A model generated the notes under the pieces. The model did not search any database. It had not been told where the DNA came from and saw nothing but the letters and a program-made list of their open reading frames with translations. Below are positions 1 to 49,122 of a DNA stretch of 64,000 nt, piece by piece (the first letter of the stretch is position 1; each line of letters starts with the position of its first letter). Both the position numbers and the translations under genes were made by a program. The DNA comes from Spirochaetia bacterium (GTDB lineage: Bacteria; Spirochaetota; Spirochaetia; CADAEX01): positions 1 through 64,000 of the forward strand of contig CAXXHA010000030.1 in NCBI GenBank assembly GCA_963662265.2, written 5' to 3'.

Positions 1-305
1 ATATTATTAAATCTTACTTTTTTAGGAGGAAACAATTCGCTTTTTATTAATTCTACAACTTTTTTATTTTCTTTGTTTATTTTTTTTATGGGTTCATTAT
101 TAATTATTATTGATTCACATATTTTTTTTAAGTCATCATTTTTTATTTTACTACAAATATACTCAAAATCTGATTCCTTACTATCAGCATAATTAATCAA
201 CCGATCTATTACATTTTTTCTATCATTTTTATATTCATCAATATTGTCTAAAATGAATACATTTCCCAGTAATTTTGCAATTTCTTTATCTTTATTTTTT
301 GCCAC
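1..305 (-). CDS. Cassette-borne hypothetical protein (third cassette), runs off the window edge
   Basis: GTG at 305 with a GAGGTG RBS upstream; frame is open to position 1 (MAKNKDKEIAKLLGNVFILDNIDEY...); not in the ORF track. Confidence 0.65.
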   Translation of the reverse strand, partial: MAKNKDKEIAKLLGNVFILDNIDEYKNDRKNVIDRLINYADSKESDFEYICSKIKNDDLKKICESIIINNEPIKKINKENKKVVELIKSELFPPKKVRFNN

Positions 306-383
306 AAATCACCTCTTTGTGTACTTTTATATTTCTAAAATTTTCAAAAAGCTGGTGTGCCCCATGAAAAGTAGACAACCTAA

Positions 384-1250
384 CTATGCAGCTATTGCTG
401 TTTGCTTTTCATATTCAGCCGGGCTTATATACCCAATTGCTGAATGTTTTCTTTTCCTGTTATAGAATATCTCGATGTATTCAAAAACACCAGCTTTTAA
501 TTCTTCAACGCTCTGATAGTTATTCGGATAAATTAATTCTACTTTCAGTCTGCTGAAAAATGATTCCATTGGGGCATTATCCCAGCAGTTTCCTCTTCTA
601 CTCATACTTAGCAGACAACCTTTTGATTGTGCAAAATCTATATATTTTTGAGCACGGTACTGTACTCCCCGATCTGAATGAAGTATTAATCCTTCAGAAA
701 ATCCTCTTCTTCCGAATGCTATCGATAATGCTTCAATTACAAGATTTTCCGTCATACTTGTATCTAATGCCCAGCCAACTATTTTTCTTGAATATAGATC
801 CATAACTGTGGCCAAATACATCCACTTGTTTCTTACCCAAATATATGTAATATCTGTAGTCCATTTTTTATTAGGATTATCTGCAGTAAAATCTCTCCAC
901 AATATGTTATCTGATACATTATTCATTGACTGGCTTTTCCGGCTATACTTAAACCCCTTACCATTCAAAGCCTTTATATCATTCTCTTGCATAATTTTAG
1001 CTATGAAGTTTGTTGAACATTTCCAGCCAAGTGAATTTAATTCTTCTGCTATTCTCCTTGAACCATAACGGGCTTTAAATGCCTCATAAGTATTTTTAAT
1101 CAGTTCTTCTATTTTCTCTTTATATTGATGTCTCTTTCCTGGTTTTCTATTTATCCACTTATAATATCCGGATCTGGAAACTCCAGGACTCTACACATCA
1201 GTGATATTTCATATTGACCTGTAAATTGATGCATTAATGCGTACTTCACT
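384..1250 (-). CDS. IS3 transposase OrfB (DDE core); apparent 1-bp indel near 1180
   Basis: W-T-T-D-I-T-Y, LHSDRGVQY and GNCWDNAPMESFF motifs; the N-terminal MCRVL..VSRSGYY motif is split between frames. Confidence 0.9.
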
Positions 1251-1554
1251 TCTGGTCGTTCGCAAAGTACGCAGCAGCTTTTTTTAAGAATTCTATTTCA
1301 TCTTTTAATTTCTTATTTTCTCTGCGTAGTTTTCTTACTTCTTCACTTTCATTTTTTGAATAATCAACTCCATTTAAGGAATTAAATTGTTTATCGCTTA
1401 GCCTGTTAAATTGACGCTTCCAGTTATAAATTTGCTGGGCGCTTATCCCCAGTTCTTCTGCTACTTTAGCTGCAGAACTACCCTCTTTTTCTGATCGTTT
1501 TACAGCTTCTCTTCTAAACTCTTCGGTATACGCCTGTACCTTTTTTCTTGCCAT
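1246..1554 (-). CDS. IS3 transposase OrfA (HTH)
   Basis: YTEEFRREAV, HTH, coiled coil, LKKAAAYF C-terminus; A7G slippery site at 1278-1285. Confidence 0.92.
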   Translation of the reverse strand: MARKKVQAYTEEFRREAVKRSEKEGSSAAKVAEELGISAQQIYNWKRQFNRLSDKQFNSLNGVDYSKNESEEVRKLRRENKKLKDEIEFLKKAAAYFANDQK

Positions 1555-1620
1555 TTGACACTCCCCTTATAATTATAATCTAACTATAGTTGGTGTCCAC
1601 TTTTTGTGGGGCAGTCCGAA

Positions 1621-1728
1621 GCATAACGCCCAGTTGAGCTGTTTGACTGCCCCGCCAGGGTTGGCGCGTGTTCTTGCATCAGCAAGAACCGTGACAAAAG
1701 TCAAATCTGCTCCAACTTTTTGTTATGC
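1621..1728 (-). repeat. Integron attC recombination site (108 bp)
   Basis: Minus strand: R'' GCATAAC, 5 nt, L'' GTTGGAGC (8 nt) ... L' GCTCAAC (7 nt), 5 nt, R' GTTATGC; internal TTCTTGC/GCAAGAA hairpin; closely similar to 2811-2910. Confidence 0.92.
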
Positions 1729-2678
1729 TCCATAATTATCTGTATATAATTTTATATACCCTCCAAATACCCAGCCTGATATTTCATTATTTTTATTTTT
1801 ACCCAAGGAAATAACATATCATCTATTGTATAAAGCCAATGGAGTTACTTCGATCATTTCAACTATGTCACCTTCCATTAGATGTCCAACTACTTCTGCA
1901 TCAAGAGTTGGTTTTTCTCTTATCCTCAAACGATTAGTTTTTGATGCTCCATATGTTTTTATTGAAAATTTATATTTAATATTTAATGCATTATTTTCTT
2001 TTAGTATTTTTACATAATTAGATTTTTCTCCATGATTTTTTGTTGCTATTGATAATGGAGTCATAAAATTATTCAAATGATTTACAATATCAATTTTTGC
2101 TCCATATTTTATAAGTAACTTCATAGCATCATAATTAGACCATTTTATGGATAAAATTAAAGGAGTATCATAAGAAACATTCATATTAATATAATCTGGA
2201 TCATATTCTAATTCTAAACATGTCTTGAGAAATAAGTTATTCCCATAATATATTGCTTTACTAATGAAATAACTAAAATCTTCATCACTTTGATTTCCAT
2301 TATAAAAGGATCAGCACCATAATCTAATAATACCTTAACCAGTTTTTCATTATTCTGTTCAGAAGCAAAATATAAAGGGTATCCGATTTGTGAATAATTA
2401 TAATTCAAATCAATATTTTGAATTATAAATAATTCTATTATTTCAATATTTCCAGATTCTAAGGCAATATGAAATATATTTTTATTATTTTTTTCATTAT
2501 CAAGAAATGGATTTAATCCATTTTGAAAATATTTCAATAATTGACTTACATTTCCAGATATTATTGCATCTTTTGCTTTTTTGTATTCTAAATTATCTGA
2601 ATATATATTATTTAAACCTATAAAATAAAAAAGAAAGAAAATTATTATTTTTTTATTAATTATTTTACTTTTTAACAC
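1723..2678 (-). pseudogene. Cassette gene: exported ankyrin-repeat + bacterial SH3 protein, split by frameshifts (possibly assembly errors)
   Basis: ORFs 2214-2678 and 1819-2184 carry ankyrin motifs and LRIREKP; another frame ends WVKI..SGWVFGGYI..YGA-TAA with the stop inside attC R''. Confidence 0.75.
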
Positions 2679-2810
2679 TATATATCCCCCACATTTTTAT
2701 ATATGAAATAGGTTTTCATAATTTTTAAATCATTATTTTATTAATATTACTATAAATGTTTATTTTTGTATAAATATTAATTCTTTTTCATCTCTTTCCC
2801 CGAAGGGGGT

Positions 2811-2910
2811 GCATAACGCCAAGTTGAGCTGTTTGGCGTCAAATGGCGCGTATTCTTGCGCATGCAAGAATCGTGACCATAGCCAAATCTGCTCCAACTT
2901 TTTGTTATCT
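2811..2910 (-). repeat. Integron attC recombination site (100 bp)
   Basis: Minus strand: AGATAAC-AAAAA-GTTGGAGC ... GCTCAAC-TTGGC-GTTATGC; the cassette ORF stop codon overlaps R''. Confidence 0.92.
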
Positions 2911-3920
2911 ATTCAATATATTCGTCGAAAACATAATCTTTCAATGTTTGGTCTAATTTTAATGCTTTTAAATATAATTCTTTTGCTTTTTCTTTATTTC
3001 CTTTATCATGTTCAATTTTAGCTAATACAATAAAAGCTTTTGGATCTGGATTATTCATTTCAACGGCTTTTTCCAATCTTTTATAGCCTTTTCATTTTCA
3101 TTGATTTCATCATATTCAGAACCACGATTATAATAAATATCTGCCCTATCTGTATCTTTTTCCAATATCATTGAATAATCTTTTATTGCTTTTTGTGTTC
3201 ACCGATTCGGCTGTATGATAAAGCTCGATCATGTAATGCATCTATATTGTTTTTTTCTTTTTCCAAATAATCAGTATACATTTGTATAGCATCATTATAT
3301 TTTTCAATTGAATTATATGCATAACCAAGAAAATATAATAATTCCGAATCACTATTGTCTATATTGTATGCTTCTTTCAAATATTGAATTGCTTTTTCAT
3401 ATTTCTTTTCATCAAATAATATTAATCCATATCTTCTTTTATAATGATATTCTGATAATCCTTGTTTGTATGATTTATATATTAATTTAGTAGCTTTTTC
3501 ATATTTTCTATTCTTATGTTCTATTTTTGCTAATTCATATTTATAAATCCATTATGAGGATAAATCGTAGATAGTATGAAAATAATTGGTTTATGTTCAA
3601 ATGTTTTTATATATTTAAAATAATCAAAAAGCATGTAAATTGCAGCTGCAAGTAAGATAATACTGCTAATTTCAATTTTTCCTAAATTATTAATAATTAT
3701 TCCAGGTATTGAAAAGATCAAAAAATAAAAAACCTGCTATAAATATTTTATTATTTTCTATGAAATAAAATAAAAAAGATAGTAAAAGTAATAATTCAGA
3801 TGATTTGATGAAAATAATACTAGGTGAAATTGTATTTTTGAATATTTTCAGCATAATATCCATGATTTTTAAAATAATTAATATACTAAATATAATTTTA
3901 TATGTTTTCTTTTTTATCAT
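2909..3920 (-). pseudogene. Cassette gene: N-terminal membrane region + TPR repeats, fragmented by frameshifts
   Basis: Hydrophobic ORFs 3690-3920 and 3530-3721; TPR fragment 3183-3380; terminal frame GNKEKAKELYLKALKLD...IE-TAG ends at attC R''. Confidence 0.7.
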
Positions 3921-3988
3921 TTTTTATCCTACTTTTAATTTTATCATATATTGAAACATTTTTCGTTATTTTCTCCCCCCGAAGGGGT

Positions 3989-4030
3989 AGATAACATACT
4001 ACATTCAACAGTTTTATCTTGTTTATTATC
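3989..4030 (-). other. Putative attI (primary cassette insertion site)
   Basis: GTTATCT core (3995-3989) is the exact complement of the first cassette's R'' AGATAAC; no attC L boxes upstream; marks the composition boundary. Confidence 0.65.
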
Positions 4031-4119
4031 TTCCCAAACACTACAAAACAGCTGTTCTGAAAAAACAACACAAAAACTGTTGTTCCGCCCATGATGCATG
4101 CTGCATATCACAACAGAAC

Positions 4120-4149
4120 ATTATATCACAAGTTATCTGCTAGTAACAA
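4120..4149 (-). promoter_or_regulatory. Putative cassette-array promoter (Pc-like)
   Basis: TTGTTA-N18-TATAAT with extended -10 TGnTATAAT, pointing into the array. Confidence 0.6.
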
Positions 4150-5034
4150 ACTTTATAAAGGAAGAGTCCTCTGGCAGGGGCTGTAGGGCCGGCTAATGAC
4201 CTGTCTGTCGCTTCAAGTATTTCCTTCATTCTCCCTCCGTCATCACCTTTTGCGTAAAGGTCAAGGACAGTGCCTGTTATGGAGCGCACCATTTTGCGGA
4301 GAAAAGCGCTTCCCTGAAATCTTGAAGACTATATAGGGGTATTCTGAATAGAAGGAGGCAGAGTATATTTCCCTTGTCATGGAAACACCCTCCTCCATTG
4401 GAGCTGAGAAAGTGGTAAAGTCATGTATACCGGTAAGAGGCGAAACTATTTTGTTCAACTTTTTTATATCAAGACTGTCCCTTACATAATGGCAGTAATT
4501 GTTCTGCCAGGGGAATGGTGTATTTCCTGAAGATATGTAATACCTGTATATCCTCTCCCTTGCGTCATAACGTGAATGAAAAGCATTATCAACTTCTTCA
4601 CTTTTCATAATCCTTATGTCTCTGGGAAGGAGTGAGTTGAGGGCAAGTGAGAAGTTTTCCTCAGGGATTGATTTTAAGTGGGTATGGAAATTTGCGACCT
4701 GTCCCTTTGCATGGACACCTGAATCTGTCCTCCCGGATCCTGTAAGCTTTATTTCCTTCTTATGGATTACAGAGAGCGCCTTTTCTATAGTGCCCTGAAC
4801 AGTGACTTCGTTGTTCTGGATCTGCCATCCGCAGTATTCAGTCCCGTCATATGCAATAGTGAGTTTTATGTTTCTCTTCTGACTAAAGCAAAAGCCGTCT
4901 TCTCTGGTGGTAGTCTCTGATTCGGGTATATTATTTAATCTCTTTTTAAGTGGCTTTTGCCGCTCCGTAAGCTCCCCAGGGGAGCGCGGCTTACTAACCA
5001 CCTGCTCTGCTGGTGGTTGTGAATTACTCATCAA
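4140..5034 (-). CDS. truA: tRNA pseudouridine(38-40) synthase; frameshift near 4308
   Basis: IAYDGTEYCGWQIQ, GSGRTDSGVHA; the alternative frame continues AFLRKMVRSITG...TAPARGLFLYKVCY-TAG at 4140. Confidence 0.92.
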
Positions 5035-5879
5035 ATTCCTTCAGTTCAGTTTTTATCTTGTCAAAAAGGTCTTTAGAGTTGTCAAGAATTGCAGCAGGCT
5101 TGTTTTTCGATGCTTTTCCCATGCCGAAGATACGGGCTATTGTCTTTTTGGCATTTTCAAGCGATGCTTTTCTCCTGACAAGATCATCTGTCGGGCAGAA
5201 TTTATATTCAAGATATGCAGTCATGTAGAGAGATCCGTCATATCCGTAGTTCTTGTCGAGGTCCGGTCCTAGGTTTTTAAGGCCGCTCATTGTCTCTGAT
5301 ACCATCCTGCTCGCCTGCTATTGCCTGCACATAGAAAAATCTCGATTTCCTGTAGAAGAGAGTTGCAAGATAGTCATAGTTTTCTGAAGGGTTTTTTGAA
5401 TGAAGATCATTACACAGCCATGCCGCGCGAAGCGCATATATACCGCTCTTTATGGAGGGGCTCATTATAGGGGTAAAATGGTTAGCAGCCTTCATTGCAT
5501 AGTAATATGAAGCAACCCCCTCTTTTAGTGTACGGGAAGCTGTAAAATCAAGGCCTGGGAGTATTTTAAGTAGCTCAGCCTCTCTTTCCTCGGTTTCAAG
5601 TTTTATTTTATCAGCTATGTCGCTGCTTATTTCAGAAAAATCCGCGCTGTTTGCCGCATAGAGGCAGTGCGGGCAAACTGTCATGTAATAGATAAGGGGA
5701 TTTATTTCTCCGTATTTTTTTGACGGAATATAAAGGCGCCTGAGTTCTGTTGTCAGGTCTCCCGCGTTGAGACGACCTCCCCCTGTCATCATTTCCTCTT
5801 TCTTGAACGATTTGCCGCATACAGGGCACTCGGTTTCAGTTTTTGACAGAAATGTACTTGCCGGTTTTCTTTCTTCCAT
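5024..5879 (-). CDS. DUF2225-family Zn-finger protein (spirochaete conserved), frameshift near 5290
   Basis: CPVC and VCPHCLYA motifs; overlapping ORFs 5277-5879 and 5024-5305 (GPDLDKNYGYDG). Confidence 0.75.
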
Positions 5880-5924
5880 TTTTTTACCTGTTTAAATACA
5901 AAATTGAATATTATTGCATTTGTT

Positions 5925-6296
5925 TTATTTCTCGATTATAACAACAGCAACTGCATTGTCCCTTTCATGCGTTAGTGACAGGTGCATGCTTTTGCCTCCC
6001 ATTTTCTCAAACGCTGATTTTGCTTTTCCATATACCCTGATATCAGGTTTTCCGTTATGGTTGTTCTCCACCTGGATTTCCTTGAGAGATATTCCCATAA
6101 GACCTGTGCCGAGCGCTTTACCGAAAGCTTCCTTTGCAGCAAACCTTGCAGCAAGTGAAAGATGCATGGAAACTCCCCTTTTTTCTGCATCCTTTATTTC
6201 ATCAGGATGAAAATATCTCTGGACAAGAAGCGGTCTTACAAGCCATTTTTTCATTCTGTCGATGTGTACAATATCAATTCCAATTCCAAGTATCAT
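5925..6296 (-). CDS. acpS: Holo-[acyl-carrier-protein] synthase
   Basis: GIGIDIV, LAARFAAKEAFGKALGTG, LSLTHE. Confidence 0.96.
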   Translation of the reverse strand: MILGIGIDIVHIDRMKKWLVRPLLVQRYFHPDEIKDAEKRGVSMHLSLAARFAAKEAFGKALGTGLMGISLKEIQVENNHNGKPDIRVYGKAKSAFEKMGGKSMHLSLTHERDNAVAVVIIEK

Positions 6297-6298
6297 TA

Positions 6299-7246
6299 TT
6301 ATCTCCTTGTTCTGCTCAAATATACTCGTACAGTCTCAGGTACAAAACTTATCACTTTGAGATCTCCTGTTCCTTTAGGAACAACAGCCATTGTATAAAT
6401 ACCGGTTTCATTTATCTCAGAAAGATCAACTGCAAGTGAAAAATCATCTTTGGTAAGTGTCTCAAGTATTGTCCTTTCAGCTTCAACCTTGAGGCTTCCG
6501 TTCTGCACGTTGAATGCAGCTTCAAATCCTTCAGGAAGGTTGTTTGCAGAGACTTTAACCGGTGCAAAAGTCTTCATTATAAGGCTCTTCTCAATAATCC
6601 CCTTAAACTGGACTTCTTTTCCTGCCAGGAAATTAACCATCTCGTTTTTATAATCAATCCTTACGGGAAGTATGAAGTTTTCAGATCTTCCTGAAAGGTT
6701 TATCTCTTCTGTTCTGAATACCAGTATTTTTTCTATAATCCTGGCAGGCCCTTCCACTGTTAGGTATTCAGGATTGAGAGAATAGTCTGCAAGTTCAAAA
6801 TTCTCTGCAGGGTAGCCCTTTATCTCTGCAACAACATCAACATTGCGTACAAGCTTTTTCTCGATATCAAGCATTATCTCCATCGGCTCTACCCTGATTT
6901 CAAGGGGATCCGCATAAAGAGCGTTGCCTGATCTTTCAATTACAACAGGTTCCCTGTATGAACCTTTTTTCCTGTGCCTTGAGAAGTCTGCATATGCCTT
7001 GAGATCCGCCTCTTCAACCATGAAGATGTTTTCTTCACTTCCCCTTAGAGTTATCCTTACATGTGTCGGATACCGCTCTGAGGCTGTAAAACTGCTTCCT
7101 ATAGACACTTCAAGAGGTATACTTAAGAAACGCTCCTCTGTTGTGTTTATCTTGTAGAAATAAAGAAGAAGGACAGCAAGTGCAAAAGAAAGGACCTTGG
7201 CAGGCCAGTTGTTTAAAAGCCTTTCTGTGATTTTTCTAATCTTCAA
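6299..7246 (-). CDS. cdaR: YbbR/CdaR family regulator of diadenylate cyclase
   Basis: N-terminal NWPAKVLS TM, YbbR-like repeats, overlaps the cdaA stop. Confidence 0.85.
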   Translation of the reverse strand: MKIRKITERLLNNWPAKVLSFALAVLLLYFYKINTTEERFLSIPLEVSIGSSFTASERYPTHVRITLRGSEENIFMVEEADLKAYADFSRHRKKGSYREPVVIERSGNALYADPLEIRVEPMEIMLDIEKKLVRNVDVVAEIKGYPAENFELADYSLNPEYLTVEGPARIIEKILVFRTEEINLSGRSENFILPVRIDYKNEMVNFLAGKEVQFKGIIEKSLIMKTFAPVKVSANNLPEGFEAAFNVQNGSLKVEAERTILETLTKDDFSLAVDLSEINETGIYTMAVVPKGTGDLKVISFVPETVRVYLSRTRR

Positions 7247-9107: not shown

Positions 9108-11138
9108 ATGTCGCTCAGGAATATGCGGAATATCGGAATTATGGCACATATTGATGCCGGTAAGACTACTACAACAGAAAGAATTCTCTATTATACAGGA
9201 AAAAGCCACAGGATTGGCGAGGTAGATAACGGAAATGCAACCATGGACTGGATGGAGCAGGAACAGGACAGGGGAATTACAATAACCTCTGCAGCAACAA
9301 CATGTTTCTGGCATGATTTTAAGATAAATATTATAGATACTCCCGGCCATGTGGACTTCACAGCAGAAGTTGAAAGAGCTCTCCGTGTACTTGATGGCGG
9401 TGTTGCTATTTTCTGTGCAGTGGGCGGTGTTGAACCCCAGTCTGAAACAGTCTGGCACCAGGCTGACAAGTACCATGTACCGAGAATTGCTCTAATCAAC
9501 AAGATGGACAGAATCGGAGCTGACTTCTTTTCAGTTGTCGATGAAATCAGGGAAAAACTCGGGGGTAATCCCCTTCCATTAAATCTTCCGATAGGAAGCG
9601 AGAGCAATTTCGAAGGCGTTATTGATATAATGAAGATGAAGGAAATCAGATGGAATCAGGAGTCAAGCGGTACTGAAATGGTTGAATCTGATATCCATGA
9701 AGAGAGACAGGGTCTTGCAGACTACTGGAGGGAAAACCTCCTGGACCAGGTTTCAGCCTTTTCCGATGAAATAACAGAACTCTACCTCAACGGTGATGAG
9801 GTACCAGAGGATCTTATTAAGGAAACAATAAGAAAAGCAACAATAAATAACGAACTTCTTCCTGTTTTCACAGGAGCATCGCTTAAAAACATCGGTGTAC
9901 AGCCGGTACTCAATGCTGTAGTTGACTATCTTCCGTCTCCTGAGGATCTTAAACCTGCTGTAGGTCATCATGTAAAGAAAGAGGACGAGGTTGAGGTTCC
10001 ATGTTCAAAATCAGGACAGCCTCTTGCCCTTGTATTCAAGATACAGAGTGACAAGGATGCCGGTGCATACAGCTTTATACGTGTGTATTCCGGAACTATC
10101 AAGAGCGGTACAGCTTTCCAGAACCTGAACAAGGGAAAGAAAGAGAGGGTAAACAGGCTCTTGAGAATGCATTCAAACAGATCAGAAGCTGTTGATTCAC
10201 TCTCTGCCGGCGATATAGGGGTTGCAATAGGACTTAAATTTTCACAGACAGGTGATACCCTGGGAACAGATAAATTCCCTATAATCCTTGAAAAAATGGA
10301 TTTCCCGGAACCTGTTATCTCAATAGCAATAGAACCCAAGTCTATTTCAGAGGGTGACAAGCTTAAAGATGTAATCGCTATTCTTTCAAAAGAGGACCCT
10401 ACTTTCAAGATGAAGGAAAACGAGGACACCGGGCAGCTTATTATCTCGGGAATGGGAGAGCTTCACCTCGAAGTTCTTGTAACAAGGATGCTTAAAGAGT
10501 TCAATGTTGATGCGAATGTCGGAAATCCCCAGGTTTCATACAGGGAATCTGTTACTTCTGAAAATACACATGTGGAAAAATTCAACAAGGTAATTGCAGG
10601 AAATGAAAATACTGCAGAGCTTACATTAAGCGTTAAACCAGCTCCCAGGGGAGAAGGAAACTCTGTCAGCCTTGATAAGATTATCAAGAAGCTTCCGAAG
10701 GAAATTACTGCTGCAATTGAACGGGGTATTTCAGGCAGTTTTTCTGCAGGCATCCAGATGGGATATCCTGTAGTTGACACGACTATCACTGTTGAAGATG
10801 CTGTATATTCAGAAATGAACTCGACTGAATTTGCTTTCGAAGCTGCAGCTTCCATGGGATTTGACTCTGTATGCAGAAACGCATCCCCAATTCTTCTTGA
10901 GCCTGTTATGACAGTAGATATTATGTGTCCGAAGGAATATGTCGGAGATGTAATCAGCCAGCTTACAATGAGGGGCGGTCTTGTTGAAAGCCTTGAATCA
11001 AGGCCCGGCTCTGAACATGTAAGGGCACATGCGCCTCTTGCAAAAATGTTCGGGTTTACAACTCCATTGAGAAGTTCAACACAGGGAAGAGGTACATTTT
11101 CCATGGAATTTTCACACTTTTCAAAGAAAGAGGATTAA
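9108..11138 (+). CDS. fusA: Elongation factor G paralogue (probably spdEFG2/recycling type)
   Basis: [23 protein letters not shown]; domain IV lacks KQSGG. Confidence 0.9.
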
Positions 11139-11224
11139 TAAAACGGCTTAGCCTGGTATAAAAATAATTTAGTTATTTACTATTATATTTTCAGGGGCTT
11201 AACAGTTAATATCAATACTTGAAT

Positions 11225-11272
11225 AAAAGCATTCTTTGCCATGAATAAAAATCAGCAAAGGGTGCTTTTTTT
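11225..11272 (+). terminator. Intrinsic terminator after first EF-G
   Basis: AAAAGCATTCTTTGC...GCAAAGGGTGCTTTT followed by a T-run. Confidence 0.6.
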
Positions 11273-11490
11273 TATTATTTTTTTCTCAACACATACTTAA
11301 CAGGTACGCTTATTATTAACATTATATCGTCTGATTACTGTCTTAAGCTGACGGAGCTGATATAAAATTTTTGTATTTGCCCCTGATTTGTTAAAAATAA
11401 GCGTTTTATTAAAAATATATAAAAAAACAATATTTTTTCCAAAAAGATCTTGTATAAAACCAATAAAATACGCTATTGTTGAGATTTTTT

Positions 11491-11519
11491 TTGACAACTG
11501 CTTAACTCAGTGCTATCAT
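11491..11519 (+). promoter_or_regulatory. Sigma70 promoter for second EF-G
   Basis: TTGACA-N17-TATCAT with extended TG. Confidence 0.7.
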
Positions 11520-11551
11520 TGTGAAACAAGTTAATGATACAGGAGTCTTGT

Positions 11552-13630
11552 ATGAGTTTTACAACTGATGCTATTAAAAACACAGCCATTGCAGGGCATG
11601 TTGGAACCGGTAAAACATCACTTATCGAAAACATCCTTCTTGCGGGCGGAAAAATTTCCAAAGCTGAGCCGGTTGAAAGCGGAAAAACAGTCAGCGACTT
11701 TTCAGAAGAGGAAATTGAAAGAAATATCTCAATCCATTCAACATTGTCATTCATTGAATGGAATAACAAAAAACTTAATTTTATAGACACTCCGGGATCA
11801 TCTGACTTTATTGGTGAAGTTGTAACAGGATTCAGAGCCTGTGAAAACGCACTACTAACAGTTAGTTCTGATACAGGAGTCCAGATTGAAACAATCAAAA
11901 TCTGGAGAAGGCTTGATAAGAGGAACATGCCGAGAATGGTTTTCCTTACAAAAGCTGAAAAAGACAGAGCTAACTTCGAAAATGCATTCAACGATGTAAA
12001 GGAAAAGTTTGAAAAAACCCTCGTTCCCATATCAATTCCAATAGGAAACGGAGCAGATTTCAAAGGTATTATAAACCTAATAGAAAACAAGGCTTACATG
12101 GTACCTGAGACTCCGGGCAAGGAAACAGCTGTAGATATTCCTGCAGATTTGAACGACTATGTGGAAGAATACAGAACAATCATGATCGAAGCTGCGGCTG
12201 AAGGTGATGATGAAATTCTTGAAAAATATTTTGAAGAGGGAACTCTTACTCCGGATGAAATCAGAAAGGGGCTTGAAGAAGGTATAAAAGCAAATAAGAT
12301 TGTACCTGTTTTTTCAGGATCAGCGCTTCTCGGATCAGGTATTGCAAGTTTGTTAAACTTCCTTGTAAATGTTGCTCCATCTCCAAACGGTATTCAGGAA
12401 ATAATTCTTGATGAAAACGGAGAAGAAAAGCTTATCGATATTTCCTCAGATAAGCCAGTTTCAACATTTGTATTCAAGACAAGTATTGACCAGTTCTCAG
12501 GAAAACTTTCATACATCAAGGTTGTTGACGGTATACTTAAACCGGATACAGAACTTATCAATGTGAAAGACAGTAAAAAGGAAAAAATATCAAAAATCTA
12601 TTCTGCAGAAGGCAAGAAACTTGAAGAAGTCAAGGAACTTTATGCAGGTGACCTCGGAATTATAACAAAAGTTAATTCTGCGGAAACAAATGATTCACTC
12701 TGTTCTGCAGACAACAAGATGGAATTCGCACATCTTAAAGTACCGCATCCTGTTTACTCTCTCACAGTATCTGCAGCCAGCAAGAAAGAAGAAGATAAGT
12801 TAAATCAGTTCCTTCACAAGGCAGCTGAAGAAGATCTAACATTCCAGCTCAACTATAATACTGAAACAAAGGAAACAATTATTTCAGGTATGGGTGAGCT
12901 TCATATAAACATGATTCTTGACAAGATCAAGGATAAGCAGAAAATCTCTATCGAAACAAAGACACCTCAGGTTGCCTACAGAGAAACTATCACAAAGAAA
13001 GCATCCGGATCCTACAGACACAAGAAACAGTCAGGTGGACACGGACAGTTCGGTGAAGTACACTTTGAACTTCAGCCTATTCCAAGAGGCGAACACCTCA
13101 AATTCATCAATACAATCAAGGGCGGCGCAGTATCGAAAGGGTATGTTCCGGGAATTGAAAAAGGTATTGCTGAAGGAATGGAAGCAGGTGTTCTTGCAGG
13201 GTTCCCGGTAGTTGATATTGAAGTAAACCTTTTCGACGGTAAGGAGCATCCTGTAGATTCATCAGAAATGTCATTCAAGCTTGCTGCAAAGGGATGTATG
13301 AAGGCTGTTCTTGAAATGGCTTCACCTACCCTTCTTGAGCCTGTTATGAAGCTTACAGTATTTGTAGATGACCAGTATCTCGGAGATGTACTTTCAGACC
13401 TCAGCTCCAGAAGAGGCCGGGTACTTGGACAGGATTCAATCGGAGGCGGAATACAGCAGATCAATGCTGAAGTTCCACAGGCTGAACTGCTTAAGTATGC
13501 GATCGACTTAAGATCAATAACAGCAGGTACAGCTTCTTTCGAAGTTGAGTTTGACCACTACAACCCTATTTCAGGAAAGATTTCAGATACAGTTATTGCT
13601 GAAGCAAAAGCAAGAAGCGAAGCTGAATAA
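11552..13630 (+). CDS. fusA: Elongation factor G-like protein (EF-G II type)
   Basis: GHVGTGKT, DTPG, RHKKQSGGHGQFG, HPVDSSEMSF; AGGAG RBS before ATG 11552. Confidence 0.9.
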   Translation: MSFTTDAIKNTAIAGHVGTGKTSLIENILLAGGKISKAEPVESGKTVSDFSEEEIERNISIHSTLSFIEWNNKKLNFIDTPGSSDFIGEVVTGFRACENALLTVSSDTGVQIETIKIWRRLDKRNMPRMVFLTKAEKDRANFENAFNDVKEKFEKTLVPISIPIGNGADFKGIINLIENKAYMVPETPGKETAVDIPADLNDYVEEYRTIMIEAAAEGDDEILEKYFEEGTLTPDEIRKGLEEGIKANKIVPVFSGSALLGSGIASLLNFLVNVAPSPNGIQEIILDENGEEKLIDISSDKPVSTFVFKTSIDQFSGKLSYIKVVDGILKPDTELINVKDSKKEKISKIYSAEGKKLEEVKELYAGDLGIITKVNSAETNDSLCSADNKMEFAHLKVPHPVYSLTVSAASKKEEDKLNQFLHKAAEEDLTFQLNYNTETKETIISGMGELHINMILDKIKDKQKISIETKTPQVAYRETITKKASGSYRHKKQSGGHGQFGEVHFELQPIPRGEHLKFINTIKGGAVSKGYVPGIEKGIAEGMEAGVLAGFPVVDIEVNLFDGKEHPVDSSEMSFKLAAKGCMKAVLEMASPTLLEPVMKLTVFVDDQYLGDVLSDLSSRRGRVLGQDSIGGGIQQINAEVPQAELLKYAIDLRSITAGTASFEVEFDHYNPISGKISDTVIAEAKARSEAE

Positions 13631-47514: not shown

Positions 47515-49122
47515 TTGATTACAGCAGCATTTATCTCGGTTCATATAAAAAAATCTCCCCTTGCGTTTCCCCTGTCATCAGCTCTGCTTGCAGCATCTGT
47601 TGATGGAGATCCCCTTCTCTGTAAAAATATAAAAACAGCAGTAACTGATTTTTTCCTGGATGATGATATTTCACTTTCTGCAGAAAAAATTATAAGCATG
47701 AATACCGATATAGCAGCATTTTCTGTCTATATATGGAACAGGGATTATATTCTTTCCCTCATAAAAAAGCTGAAACAGATCAGGCCTGATATCTCTGTAA
47801 TAGCAGGGGGAGCAGAAGTAACAGCTGATCCCGTTTTTTTCAGAAACCACCCGGATATTGACTGGATAGTCAATGGTGAGGGGGAAGAAGCTGTTACAGA
47901 ATACTTCAGGACTGTTGTTAAAAATCTTTCAGAATCAGAAGAGCAAAATATATCAGTCTCCCCCTGCACACTGCCTTATTCGAAACCAGAAACAGAAAGA
48001 ATATCTGTTTCAGATCCGGCAATATACCCCTCCCCTATTCTTGTACATAAAATCTGTCTTGAAAACTATGACGGTATTCTCTGGGAGCTTTCAAGGGGAT
48101 GCCCTTTTAAATGCGGTTTCTGTTTTGAATCCAGGGGAAGTGAAAGGGTGAGAAAATTCCCCATTGAAAGAATAACTAAAGAACTGGATGTAATAAAGAA
48201 ATCAGGTATTGACCAGGTCTTTGTCCTTGATCCCACATTCAACATTGACAGAAAAAGGGCAAAGGAAATACTCACACTCATAAAAAACAAAGCGCCTGAT
48301 ATTCATTTTACTTTTGAAGCAAGAAGTGAATACCTGGATATTGAAACAGCAGAACTTTTTTCAGAAATAACATGTTCTGTTCAGATAGGTCTCCAGAGTT
48401 CTTCGGAAGATGTTCTTAAAAATGTCAACAGGAAACTGGACCAGGATGATTTTTACAGCAAGGTACTGATGCTCCATGAAGCAGGAGCAGTCTACGGATT
48501 TGATATAATTTACGGACTTCCCGGCGACACGCCTGAAAAATTCCTTGATACTGTTGATTTTGCTCTGTCAATGGCTCCTAATCACATAGATATCTTTCCT
48601 CTTGCAGTACTTAAAGGAACAGATATTTATGACAAAGCTGATTCATTCGGCCTGGTCTACAGAAAATCAGATCCCTACACAATAATAGAAACACCAGGTT
48701 TTACAGCGGAAGAAATAATATCGGCATCAGAAACTGCAGAAAGTATCAACCTTTTCTACAACAGGGGTAAAGCAGTTTCATTTCTCCCGCTGCTGCTTGA
48801 AAATACCAACCTCTCCCCTTCAGACTTCTTTACCAGTTTTTCAGTATGGCTTCTGCAAAACAAACAATTTTCTGATTTCGATACAGTATCAGAGACTGAA
48901 ATAACAAAACTTCAGACAGTTTTTGTCAAACAGCTTTTCAAAGATATGGATATGGAAGAATGCGGTATACTGGCATCTGATATTATTTTTTCAATGAAAG
49001 AGGAATACCGGGAATTCAATGAAAATCTATTGTCAGGCTTATTCAATATGGATAAGGTTTTTGAATACCTTGATTCAGGTGTTACCGATATTGAAGAACT
49101 TGTGTTTTTCACCAGAACCTGA
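47515..49122 (+). CDS. B12-binding domain radical SAM protein
   Basis: FSVYIWN, GGAEV, GEGE, ELSRGCPFKCGFC. Confidence 0.9.
   Translation: MITAAFISVHIKKSPLAFPLSSALLAASVDGDPLLCKNIKTAVTDFFLDDDISLSAEKIISMNTDIAAFSVYIWNRDYILSLIKKLKQIRPDISVIAGGAEVTADPVFFRNHPDIDWIVNGEGEEAVTEYFRTVVKNLSESEEQNISVSPCTLPYSKPETERISVSDPAIYPSPILVHKICLENYDGILWELSRGCPFKCGFCFESRGSERVRKFPIERITKELDVIKKSGIDQVFVLDPTFNIDRKRAKEILTLIKNKAPDIHFTFEARSEYLDIETAELFSEITCSVQIGLQSSSEDVLKNVNRKLDQDDFYSKVLMLHEAGAVYGFDIIYGLPGDTPEKFLDTVDFALSMAPNHIDIFPLAVLKGTDIYDKADSFGLVYRKSDPYTIIETPGFTAEEIISASETAESINLFYNRGKAVSFLPLLLENTNLSPSDFFTSFSVWLLQNKQFSDFDTVSETEITKLQTVFVKQLFKDMDMEECGILASDIIFSMKEEYREFNENLLSGLFNMDKVFEYLDSGVTDIEELVFFTRT

Follow-up and report, generated by a model that had tools for sequence, protein, structure and literature searches.

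We analyzed a 64,000-nt window of DNA from a Spirochaetia bacterium, the start of contig C30 of the source genome G000 (3.77 Mb, 41 contigs, completeness 90.6%), in which integron-type cassettes follow truA, the gene for a tRNA pseudouridine synthase. We found that the locus behind truA is best read as a satellite attI that has no integrase gene of its own and is likely served in trans by the single integron integrase (IntI) encoded on contig C8, a reading to which we assign a probability of roughly 70%. Service in trans is supported because the attC sites of both loci belong to the same family, the truA site is homologous to attI, and a different cassette occurs at the same G|TT in another strain. 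On the minus strand, which for the attC sites serves as top strand, the gene order is folP, dacA, ybbR, acpS, DUF2225, truA, a 145-bp spacer and then the cassettes, and GC content is ~0.42 in the truA operon versus 0.16-0.35 left of position 4000. The array holds at least three cassettes and reaches the contig start, so that it is open-ended on its distal side. The features of the locus are as follows.

4140..4881, minus strand: truA (PF01416 and TIGR00071 above cut-off), closing the acpS-DUF2225-truA housekeeping run
4120..4149, minus strand: promoter-like site TTGTTA-18-TG-TATAAT, a candidate cassette promoter overlapping the 3' end of truA
4027..4119, minus strand: spacer with AACAG/CTGTT-rich repeats
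3993..4026, minus strand: putative satellite attI with its crossover at G3995, before TT, from the attI consensus match and the strain divergence at the core
2817..3994, minus strand: cassette 1, encoding a hydrophobic N-terminus and TPR repeats, split by assembly indels, its stop overlapping R''
2811..2910, minus strand: attC of 100 bp, from box geometry, fold and covariance-model match
1627..2816, minus strand: cassette 2, encoding ankyrin repeats and a weak SH3b match, split by assembly indels, its TAA stop within R''
1621..1728, minus strand: attC of 108 bp, from the same three kinds of evidence
1..352, minus strand: body of cassette 3, truncated where the contig begins, with an open reading frame (ORF) that has no Pfam match; its first bases lie at 1619-1626, ahead of an insertion sequence (IS)

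Seven sequencing runs from two studies contain part of the window, none of the listed holders being an RNA run, and six of them were compared. One contig of run X1, possibly the source sample, covers 2879-6500 without substitutions and with 7 gaps. It crosses the truA-array junction, so the junction is not the misassembly at ~4.0-4.15 kb that the initial annotation had named as a risk, and most of the frameshifts, those that split the cassette ORFs largely included, are assembly indels. The second study contributed run X3, one 3,567-nt contig of which aligns to 3991-6223 without substitutions (3 gaps); beyond 3991 it has 1,337 bases of other sequence, and the break falls exactly at the G|TT core. 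Run X4, from the same sample as X3, shows the same 30-base loose end at the core. The first cassette differs between two near-identical strains exactly at G|TT, and the cassette start of X3 was absent from G000 at up to 5 mismatches. Cassette 1 of the window is also present in X3, where an attC arm (L'/R') takes the place of attI in front of it. This copy has twice the depth of the platform and occurs in run X5 without the platform, and it may sit in another array or strain. Runs X6 and X7 contributed nothing further. Joints with sides shorter than 50 nt join attC copies and were not counted as excisions.

We compared the proximal core with the attI sites adjoining intI in G000, G001 and G002, the last two being genomes of relatives in the genus. 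These attI sites share a block ending TGAAT..AT, followed by GTT, and the window core agrees with them at 16/24, 16/24 and 18/24 positions, respectively. In G002, a site that heads cassettes at an unrelated position (1.327 Mb) matches it at 29/34 bases, a score reached by 0/500 shuffles. Under a profile built from the three intI-linked attI sites only, the window core ranked third among non-training sites (118,929 GTT scanned). With two G002 satellites added to this profile, which contained no site from the window, it ranked first, with 23.4 versus 18.1 for the next (118,918 GTT). Judged from its sequence, the proximal core therefore appears to be a true attI with a G|TT crossover, and the divergence in X3 and X4 lies at this core. 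The initial annotation had described the core at 3989-3995 as free of attC arms, which agrees with our folds. We considered the segment 3989-4138, bounded by inverted 7-mers, as an attC and rejected it, since it folds only with z -1.94 and its ends are unpaired. Separately, a duplicated ~400-nt non-coding stretch on contig C1 (C1:117229 and C1:121055) has an attI-like GTT context and no attC match behind it.

The locus could instead be the relic of a second complete integron whose own intI was deleted, with the site now inert and the strain difference left from exchange before the loss or from homologous recombination. The AACAG/CTGTT motifs of the spacer resemble those before intI on C8 and in the relatives G001 and G009, the window attI is no nearer its own main attI than the attI of other genomes, and loss of intI is among the listed origins of clusters of attC sites lacking an integron integrase (CALINs) (PMC4889954). 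Against this, tblastn found no intI remnant on C30, and G002 keeps three such sites without intI remnants at the satellite loci tested. Across 2.2 kb of platform and operon the two strains show no substitution, yet they differ exactly at G|TT, which indicates a recent, site-specific change. We consider a relic unlikely.

The flank of truA in relatives bears on a second alternative. The initial annotation had proposed this comparison, expecting variable cassettes behind truA. Their variability was seen within the species; among the relatives, G001, G002 and G009 have no array there and their gene content differs from that of G000. In G002 and G009, truA is directly followed by udg, with priA next in G002, and in G001 it is followed by NYN-like, rpsA-like and deaminase-like genes and then udg-priA; apart from truA, these genes are presumably what their sequence likeness suggests. 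No attC was found behind truA in G001, G002 and G009, so the truA platform is recent and, among the compared genomes, limited to this species. The core could be a chance secondary site, an attG hot spot behind a resident promoter, and not a dedicated dock. Cassette insertion by IntI occurs at numerous GWT sites and close to promoters (10.1101/2022.09.11.507474), relatives lack the array, and 13 of 118,917 GTT sites, the window core included, reach 16/24 to the C8 attI. However, the match to the G002 site extends over 34 bp, well past the core, where an attG would be native sequence unlike attI. In addition, the entire 145-bp segment is missing behind truA in G001, G002 and G009, so it was brought in and is not native. 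We regard a chance site as improbable.

We then characterized the attC sites. The site at 2811-2910 has R'' AGATAAC, 5 nt, L'' GTTGGAGC and, on its other arm, L' GCTCAAC, 5 nt and R' GTTATGC, while the site at 1621-1728 has R'' GCATAAC, the same L boxes and R' GTTATGC. Both carry the canonical extra G in L'', the extrahelical base. Their bottom strands fold with z -5.75 (2811-2910) and -6.58 (1621-1728), with 0/200 shuffles as good. A covariance model trained solely on 28 attC sites of contig C8, window sites excluded, matched the two sites with 97.2 and 115.4 bits and nothing else in the window. The stops of both cassette ORFs fall in or on R'', and the start core of each cassette is the complement of its own R''. 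The same rule is kept in 22 of 29 scored intervals <2.5 kb of the C8 array and is thus an ordinary cassette signature. The R''-5-L''...L'-5-R' geometry, the stops overlapping R'' and the complementary start cores had all been described in the initial annotation and held up here, as did its proposed covariance-model check.

The integrase search covered the whole genome. G000 has 6 PF00589 matches, and only one gene lies above the integron-integrase cut-off.

C8:77642-78862: complete IntI, 406 aa (TIGR02249, 382.6 bits; cut-off 265)

Aligned to IntI4 (PDB 2a3v), this tyrosine recombinase contains the catalytic residues and the IntI-specific insertion. Its gene is divergent from the attI at C8:77482, which heads a cassette array. 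Covariance-model matches in G000 (n=44) comprise 40 in the C8 array, 2 in the window, and 1 each on contigs C2 and C5. There is likewise one gene above the cut-off in each of G001 (1 contig) and G002 (3 contigs), and in all 3 of 3 cases in the genus intI is upstream of and divergent from attI. Behind truA, intI does not adjoin attI; upstream of the core, at 145 bp, lies truA itself. The 88-kb contig C30 gave no IntI match upstream of the array, whose distal side is cut by the contig end. That no integrase adjoins the array on its attI side, as first annotated, was thus confirmed, with no intI between truA and the array. Of the two locations suggested for the integrase, service in trans gained support from the C8 IntI heading the same attC family, and a distal-end integrase gained none. 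The contig does break inside cassette 3, and contig C10 encodes a 289-aa tyrosine recombinase that lacks the insertion and aligns to the IntI profile as two separate segments; however, an own integrase in unassembled distal DNA or service by the C10 recombinase is very improbable given the 3/3 intI genes upstream of and divergent from attI, the Treponema-type intI that also points toward attI (PMC3607928), and window attC sites that carry the canonical extra L'' G and belong to the C8 family.

Several observations concern other cassettes and attC sites in G000. On C8, gene-less cassettes with a long attC subtype are repeated at 47868-48306, 69685-70122 and 77045-77482, one of them being first in the main array. 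On C2, a degenerate attC follows a short-chain dehydrogenase gene (L013:1004-1109), and the same contig carries an rpsA-like gene of the type found behind truA in G001. The degenerate attC may be what remains of the distal end of the truA array.

Further attI-headed arrays were found in the genus. We searched four genomes with an attI pattern derived from known sites, so that matches on those are not independent; the 1.313-Mb site of G002 was new. The 8 matches comprised 7 array heads and 1 chance match (G000 C1), and the reversed control gave 6. In G002, with its single IntI, sites of the attI consensus lie at 0.931, 1.313, 1.327 and 2.825 Mb with attC matches after each, the last adjoining intI. 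The 0.931-Mb site shares ~140 nt with the intI-linked site (score 126, compared with at most 58 in shuffles), and 12 or more attC sites follow it. The sites at 1.313 and 1.327 Mb, 13 kb apart, have a common 274-nt non-coding module with 82% identity (L212:7980-8255, L208:4360-4634), and the start core of the 1.327-Mb site is complementary to the R'' that comes first. The first cassette at this satellite is a 5-kb four-gene CBASS (cyclic-oligonucleotide-based antiphage signalling system; cyclase, E1-E2, JAB and SAVED effector; L208:4634-9746). A satellite attI of G002 (L112:14900-16323) follows a sequence resembling the 3' half of a tRNA, where a set of phage-like genes ends, which suggests that it is carried on an integrated element. 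G009 gave no attI-pattern match, and no attI-like head was found in the stretches scanned of its array at 1.97-2.15 Mb or of the lone attC sites of G001. In G009 (L049, L068, L209), intI carries a frameshift and has an IS-like gene immediately upstream, and a long attC array lies ~1.5 Mb away.

How the first cassettes would be expressed was considered from the end of truA. The promoter-like site at 4149-4120 has 10/12 consensus matches with TG and lies 125 nt from the crossover G. The initial annotation had called it a strong extended -10 promoter beginning at the truA stop. The consensus match was recovered at the proposed distance, while its strength was not shown; the stop codon is 4142-4140, so the -35 sits within the last truA codons. 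No terminator was found in 3900-4400. We also noted that the motif AAAACTGTTG repeats in the satellite spacer (window 4059-4087) and on both sides of intI (L003:870-900, 2170-2227). It may be a regulator site; a genome-wide search gave 22 matches, many within coding DNA.

Under the satellite reading, and by known integron chemistry, in which double-stranded attI recombines with a folded attC bottom strand (PMC8946536, PMC11023631), the C8 IntI would bind the double-stranded truA attI and recombine it with an incoming attC in the form of its folded bottom strand, so that the new cassette would land first. The putative promoter at the truA end, or read-through from the operon, would then transcribe the first cassettes.

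Several points weigh against a satellite served in trans. The turnover comes from a single sample (that of X3 and X4) with contigs at depth 2-4, and the strain difference shows past exchange and not present activity. Clear attI homology is limited to ~34 bp, the rest of the spacer being marginal (local alignment score of 40 to the C8 platform, reached by 4/300 shuffles), and under the three-site profile two C1 sites in an unrelated repeat without attC matches outscore the window core. The core agrees at 20/24 with the G002 satellite versus 16/24 with its own main attI, and an integrase and its attI are believed to evolve together (PMC8946536). Because the window attI is nearer the satellite of another species than its own main attI, these sequences suggest that the satellites have their own history. 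The window cassettes are not copies of C8 cassettes, only leaders being common to both. Within 500 nt, 1 promoter-like site was found versus a shuffle mean of 1.3, which is not above chance. Elsewhere in the genus, G001, in one contig, has no second attI at up to 3 mismatches, only the main site, and the 1.313-Mb array of G002 has an imperfect first R'' and weak attC matches (20-26 bits). Finally, a second intI is possible in G000, which is 90.6% complete and whose contig ends inside cassette 3.

Cassette 3, at the contig edge, and the region 353-1618 had both been missed in the initial annotation.

353..1618, minus strand: IS3-family element with orfA at 1246-1554 and orfB ending at 384 (NF033516, 251.3 bits; cut-off 160)

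The element has orfA (HTH) and an overlapping orfB (rve DDE) in ~1.3 kb. It is inserted after GTTAT, 5 nt into the R' box of the attC at 1621-1728, with a 4-bp target duplication, GCTT, at 1619-1622 and 349-352. Ends with 5'-TG on both sides are typical of the IS3 family and not strictly defining. Here the right end is TG and the left end CG, the left ends of related copies being CG, CA, CC or AG, and we classed the element by its transposase as part of an atypical clade. We counted 14 full or near-full copies in G000, G001 and G002, excluding two short end remnants, and the 4-bp duplication is exact in 10 of them. GTTAT directly precedes the four duplicated bases in 12/14 copies, the left end points toward the core in 12/12 of these, and 9/14 adjoin an attC. 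Of the copies that do not abut an attC, two belong to arrays and adjoin the end of another IS, two are found at R'-like sequence away from any array, and one has lost its left flank. There are 10,671 GTTAT 5-mers in G000, so the 5-mer alone does not account for the insertion bias. In G000 alone only 1/3 copies is at an attC, and the targeting is clear only once the relatives are added.

A clade survey of 80 of 587 metagenome relatives and 5 named records extended this pattern. Relatives at 51-70% identity and the spirochaete copies form one clade in a quick tree (26 rows, SH-aLRT 100), with members from Vibrio campbellii, V. alginolyticus and Pseudoalteromonas records, metagenomes and spirochaetes. 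The left end could be scored in 18/23 non-spirochaete clade loci. A script found GTT-purine at the offset in 16/18, and the two misses show it by eye, compared with 0/41 scored loci outside the clade (62 loci in all). A strict attC fold test was passed by 8/16 clade loci, several having too little flank. The clade loci include kin and are not independent, and their flanking attC sites differ widely. Exact IS-end patterns gave no match in viral and metagenome contigs, and no relative of the IS was found at E 1e-85 in a phylum sample of 400 other genomes. An IS3-family element of an attC-homing clade thus appears to have jumped into the head of cassette 3. The target duplication would restore the R' box, the upstream attC likely staying usable, and the element would travel inside cassette 3. 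In G001, IS110-like ORFs interrupt attC on the R'' side, with IS3 at the opposite side of the same sites (L075, L082, L064:10577-17438), and a lone attC lies beside an IS91-like transposase remnant with an IS3 element inserted too (L115:14600-15110).

In the remainder of the window, the truA reading frame is interrupted near 4290 in the G000 assembly and is 88% identical to the intact truA of G001, and a tandem pair of elongation-factor-G-like genes lies at 9108-13630.

The truA array resembles several known systems in part. [quoted passage not shown] CALINs have four proposed origins and exchange with resident integrons, and are treated as remnants or cassette donors (PMC4889954), whereas the truA array has an attI homologue at its head and a different first cassette in another strain. 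It shares canonical attC sites forming a homogeneous family, an attI with G|TT and AT-rich co-oriented cassettes with sedentary chromosomal integrons such as the C8 locus and Treponema integrons. Unlike these, it has no adjacent intI, truA occupying the place of intI. One attI per integron is stated in PMC3607928, compared with four attI-headed arrays and one IntI in G002. The attG/SALIN insertions likewise place cassettes away from the main platform, where a resident promoter may express them (10.1101/2022.09.11.507474). The attG consensus there is short (GWT and small motifs) and unlike attI, whereas the truA site has ~34 bp in common with true attI and came in as part of a foreign segment. 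Mobilization of cassettes in trans has already been proposed (PMC9668308, 10.1101/2025.06.18.660453).

The IS3 element, for its part, resembles the IS1111-attC group and the group IIC-attC introns, which also home to attC in one orientation. The IS1111-attC group features a DEDD (IS110/IS1111) transposase (PMC11187229), whereas this element matches the IS3 profile above cut-off and has a DDE transposase, a 4-bp duplication and insertion after the fifth R' base that leaves the upstream attC whole. IS3 elements in cassette arrays have been reported with no attC target stated in the accessible parts of the papers (PMC11023631, PMC1382264, PMC11089894). Our search of the literature, mostly titles and abstract openings, with subscription papers outside it, found no account of integrase-less attI docks or of attC-targeting IS3 elements. 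The clade could already be in the IS tables of subscription papers or in ISfinder entries.

Taken further, and as a tentative proposal that we hold somewhat short of even odds, the genus may run a distributed integron, in which one IntI serves several dedicated attI modules of 35-270 bp that relocate independently and sit behind resident promoters. Each module would still take up cassettes, among them entire defence operons like the CBASS of G002. The widespread IS3 clade, with its modified left end, would exploit the same system by reading the R' box of attC, and would add a third type to the elements that home to attC.

CALINs, whose origin is open, are more numerous than complete integrons, and attI is rarely searched for because its sequence is unknown for most integrons (PMC4889954). 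The IS3 clade provides a testable DDE transposase with a fixed attC target, and may lie behind some of the IS3 load that cassette arrays are reported to carry (PMC11089894). With six natural attI variants from one genus, the specificity of IntI could readily be tested. Should some CALINs be live satellite docks, integrase-less arrays would not be dead ends, and one integrase would allow several first cassettes to be expressed at once under different promoters.

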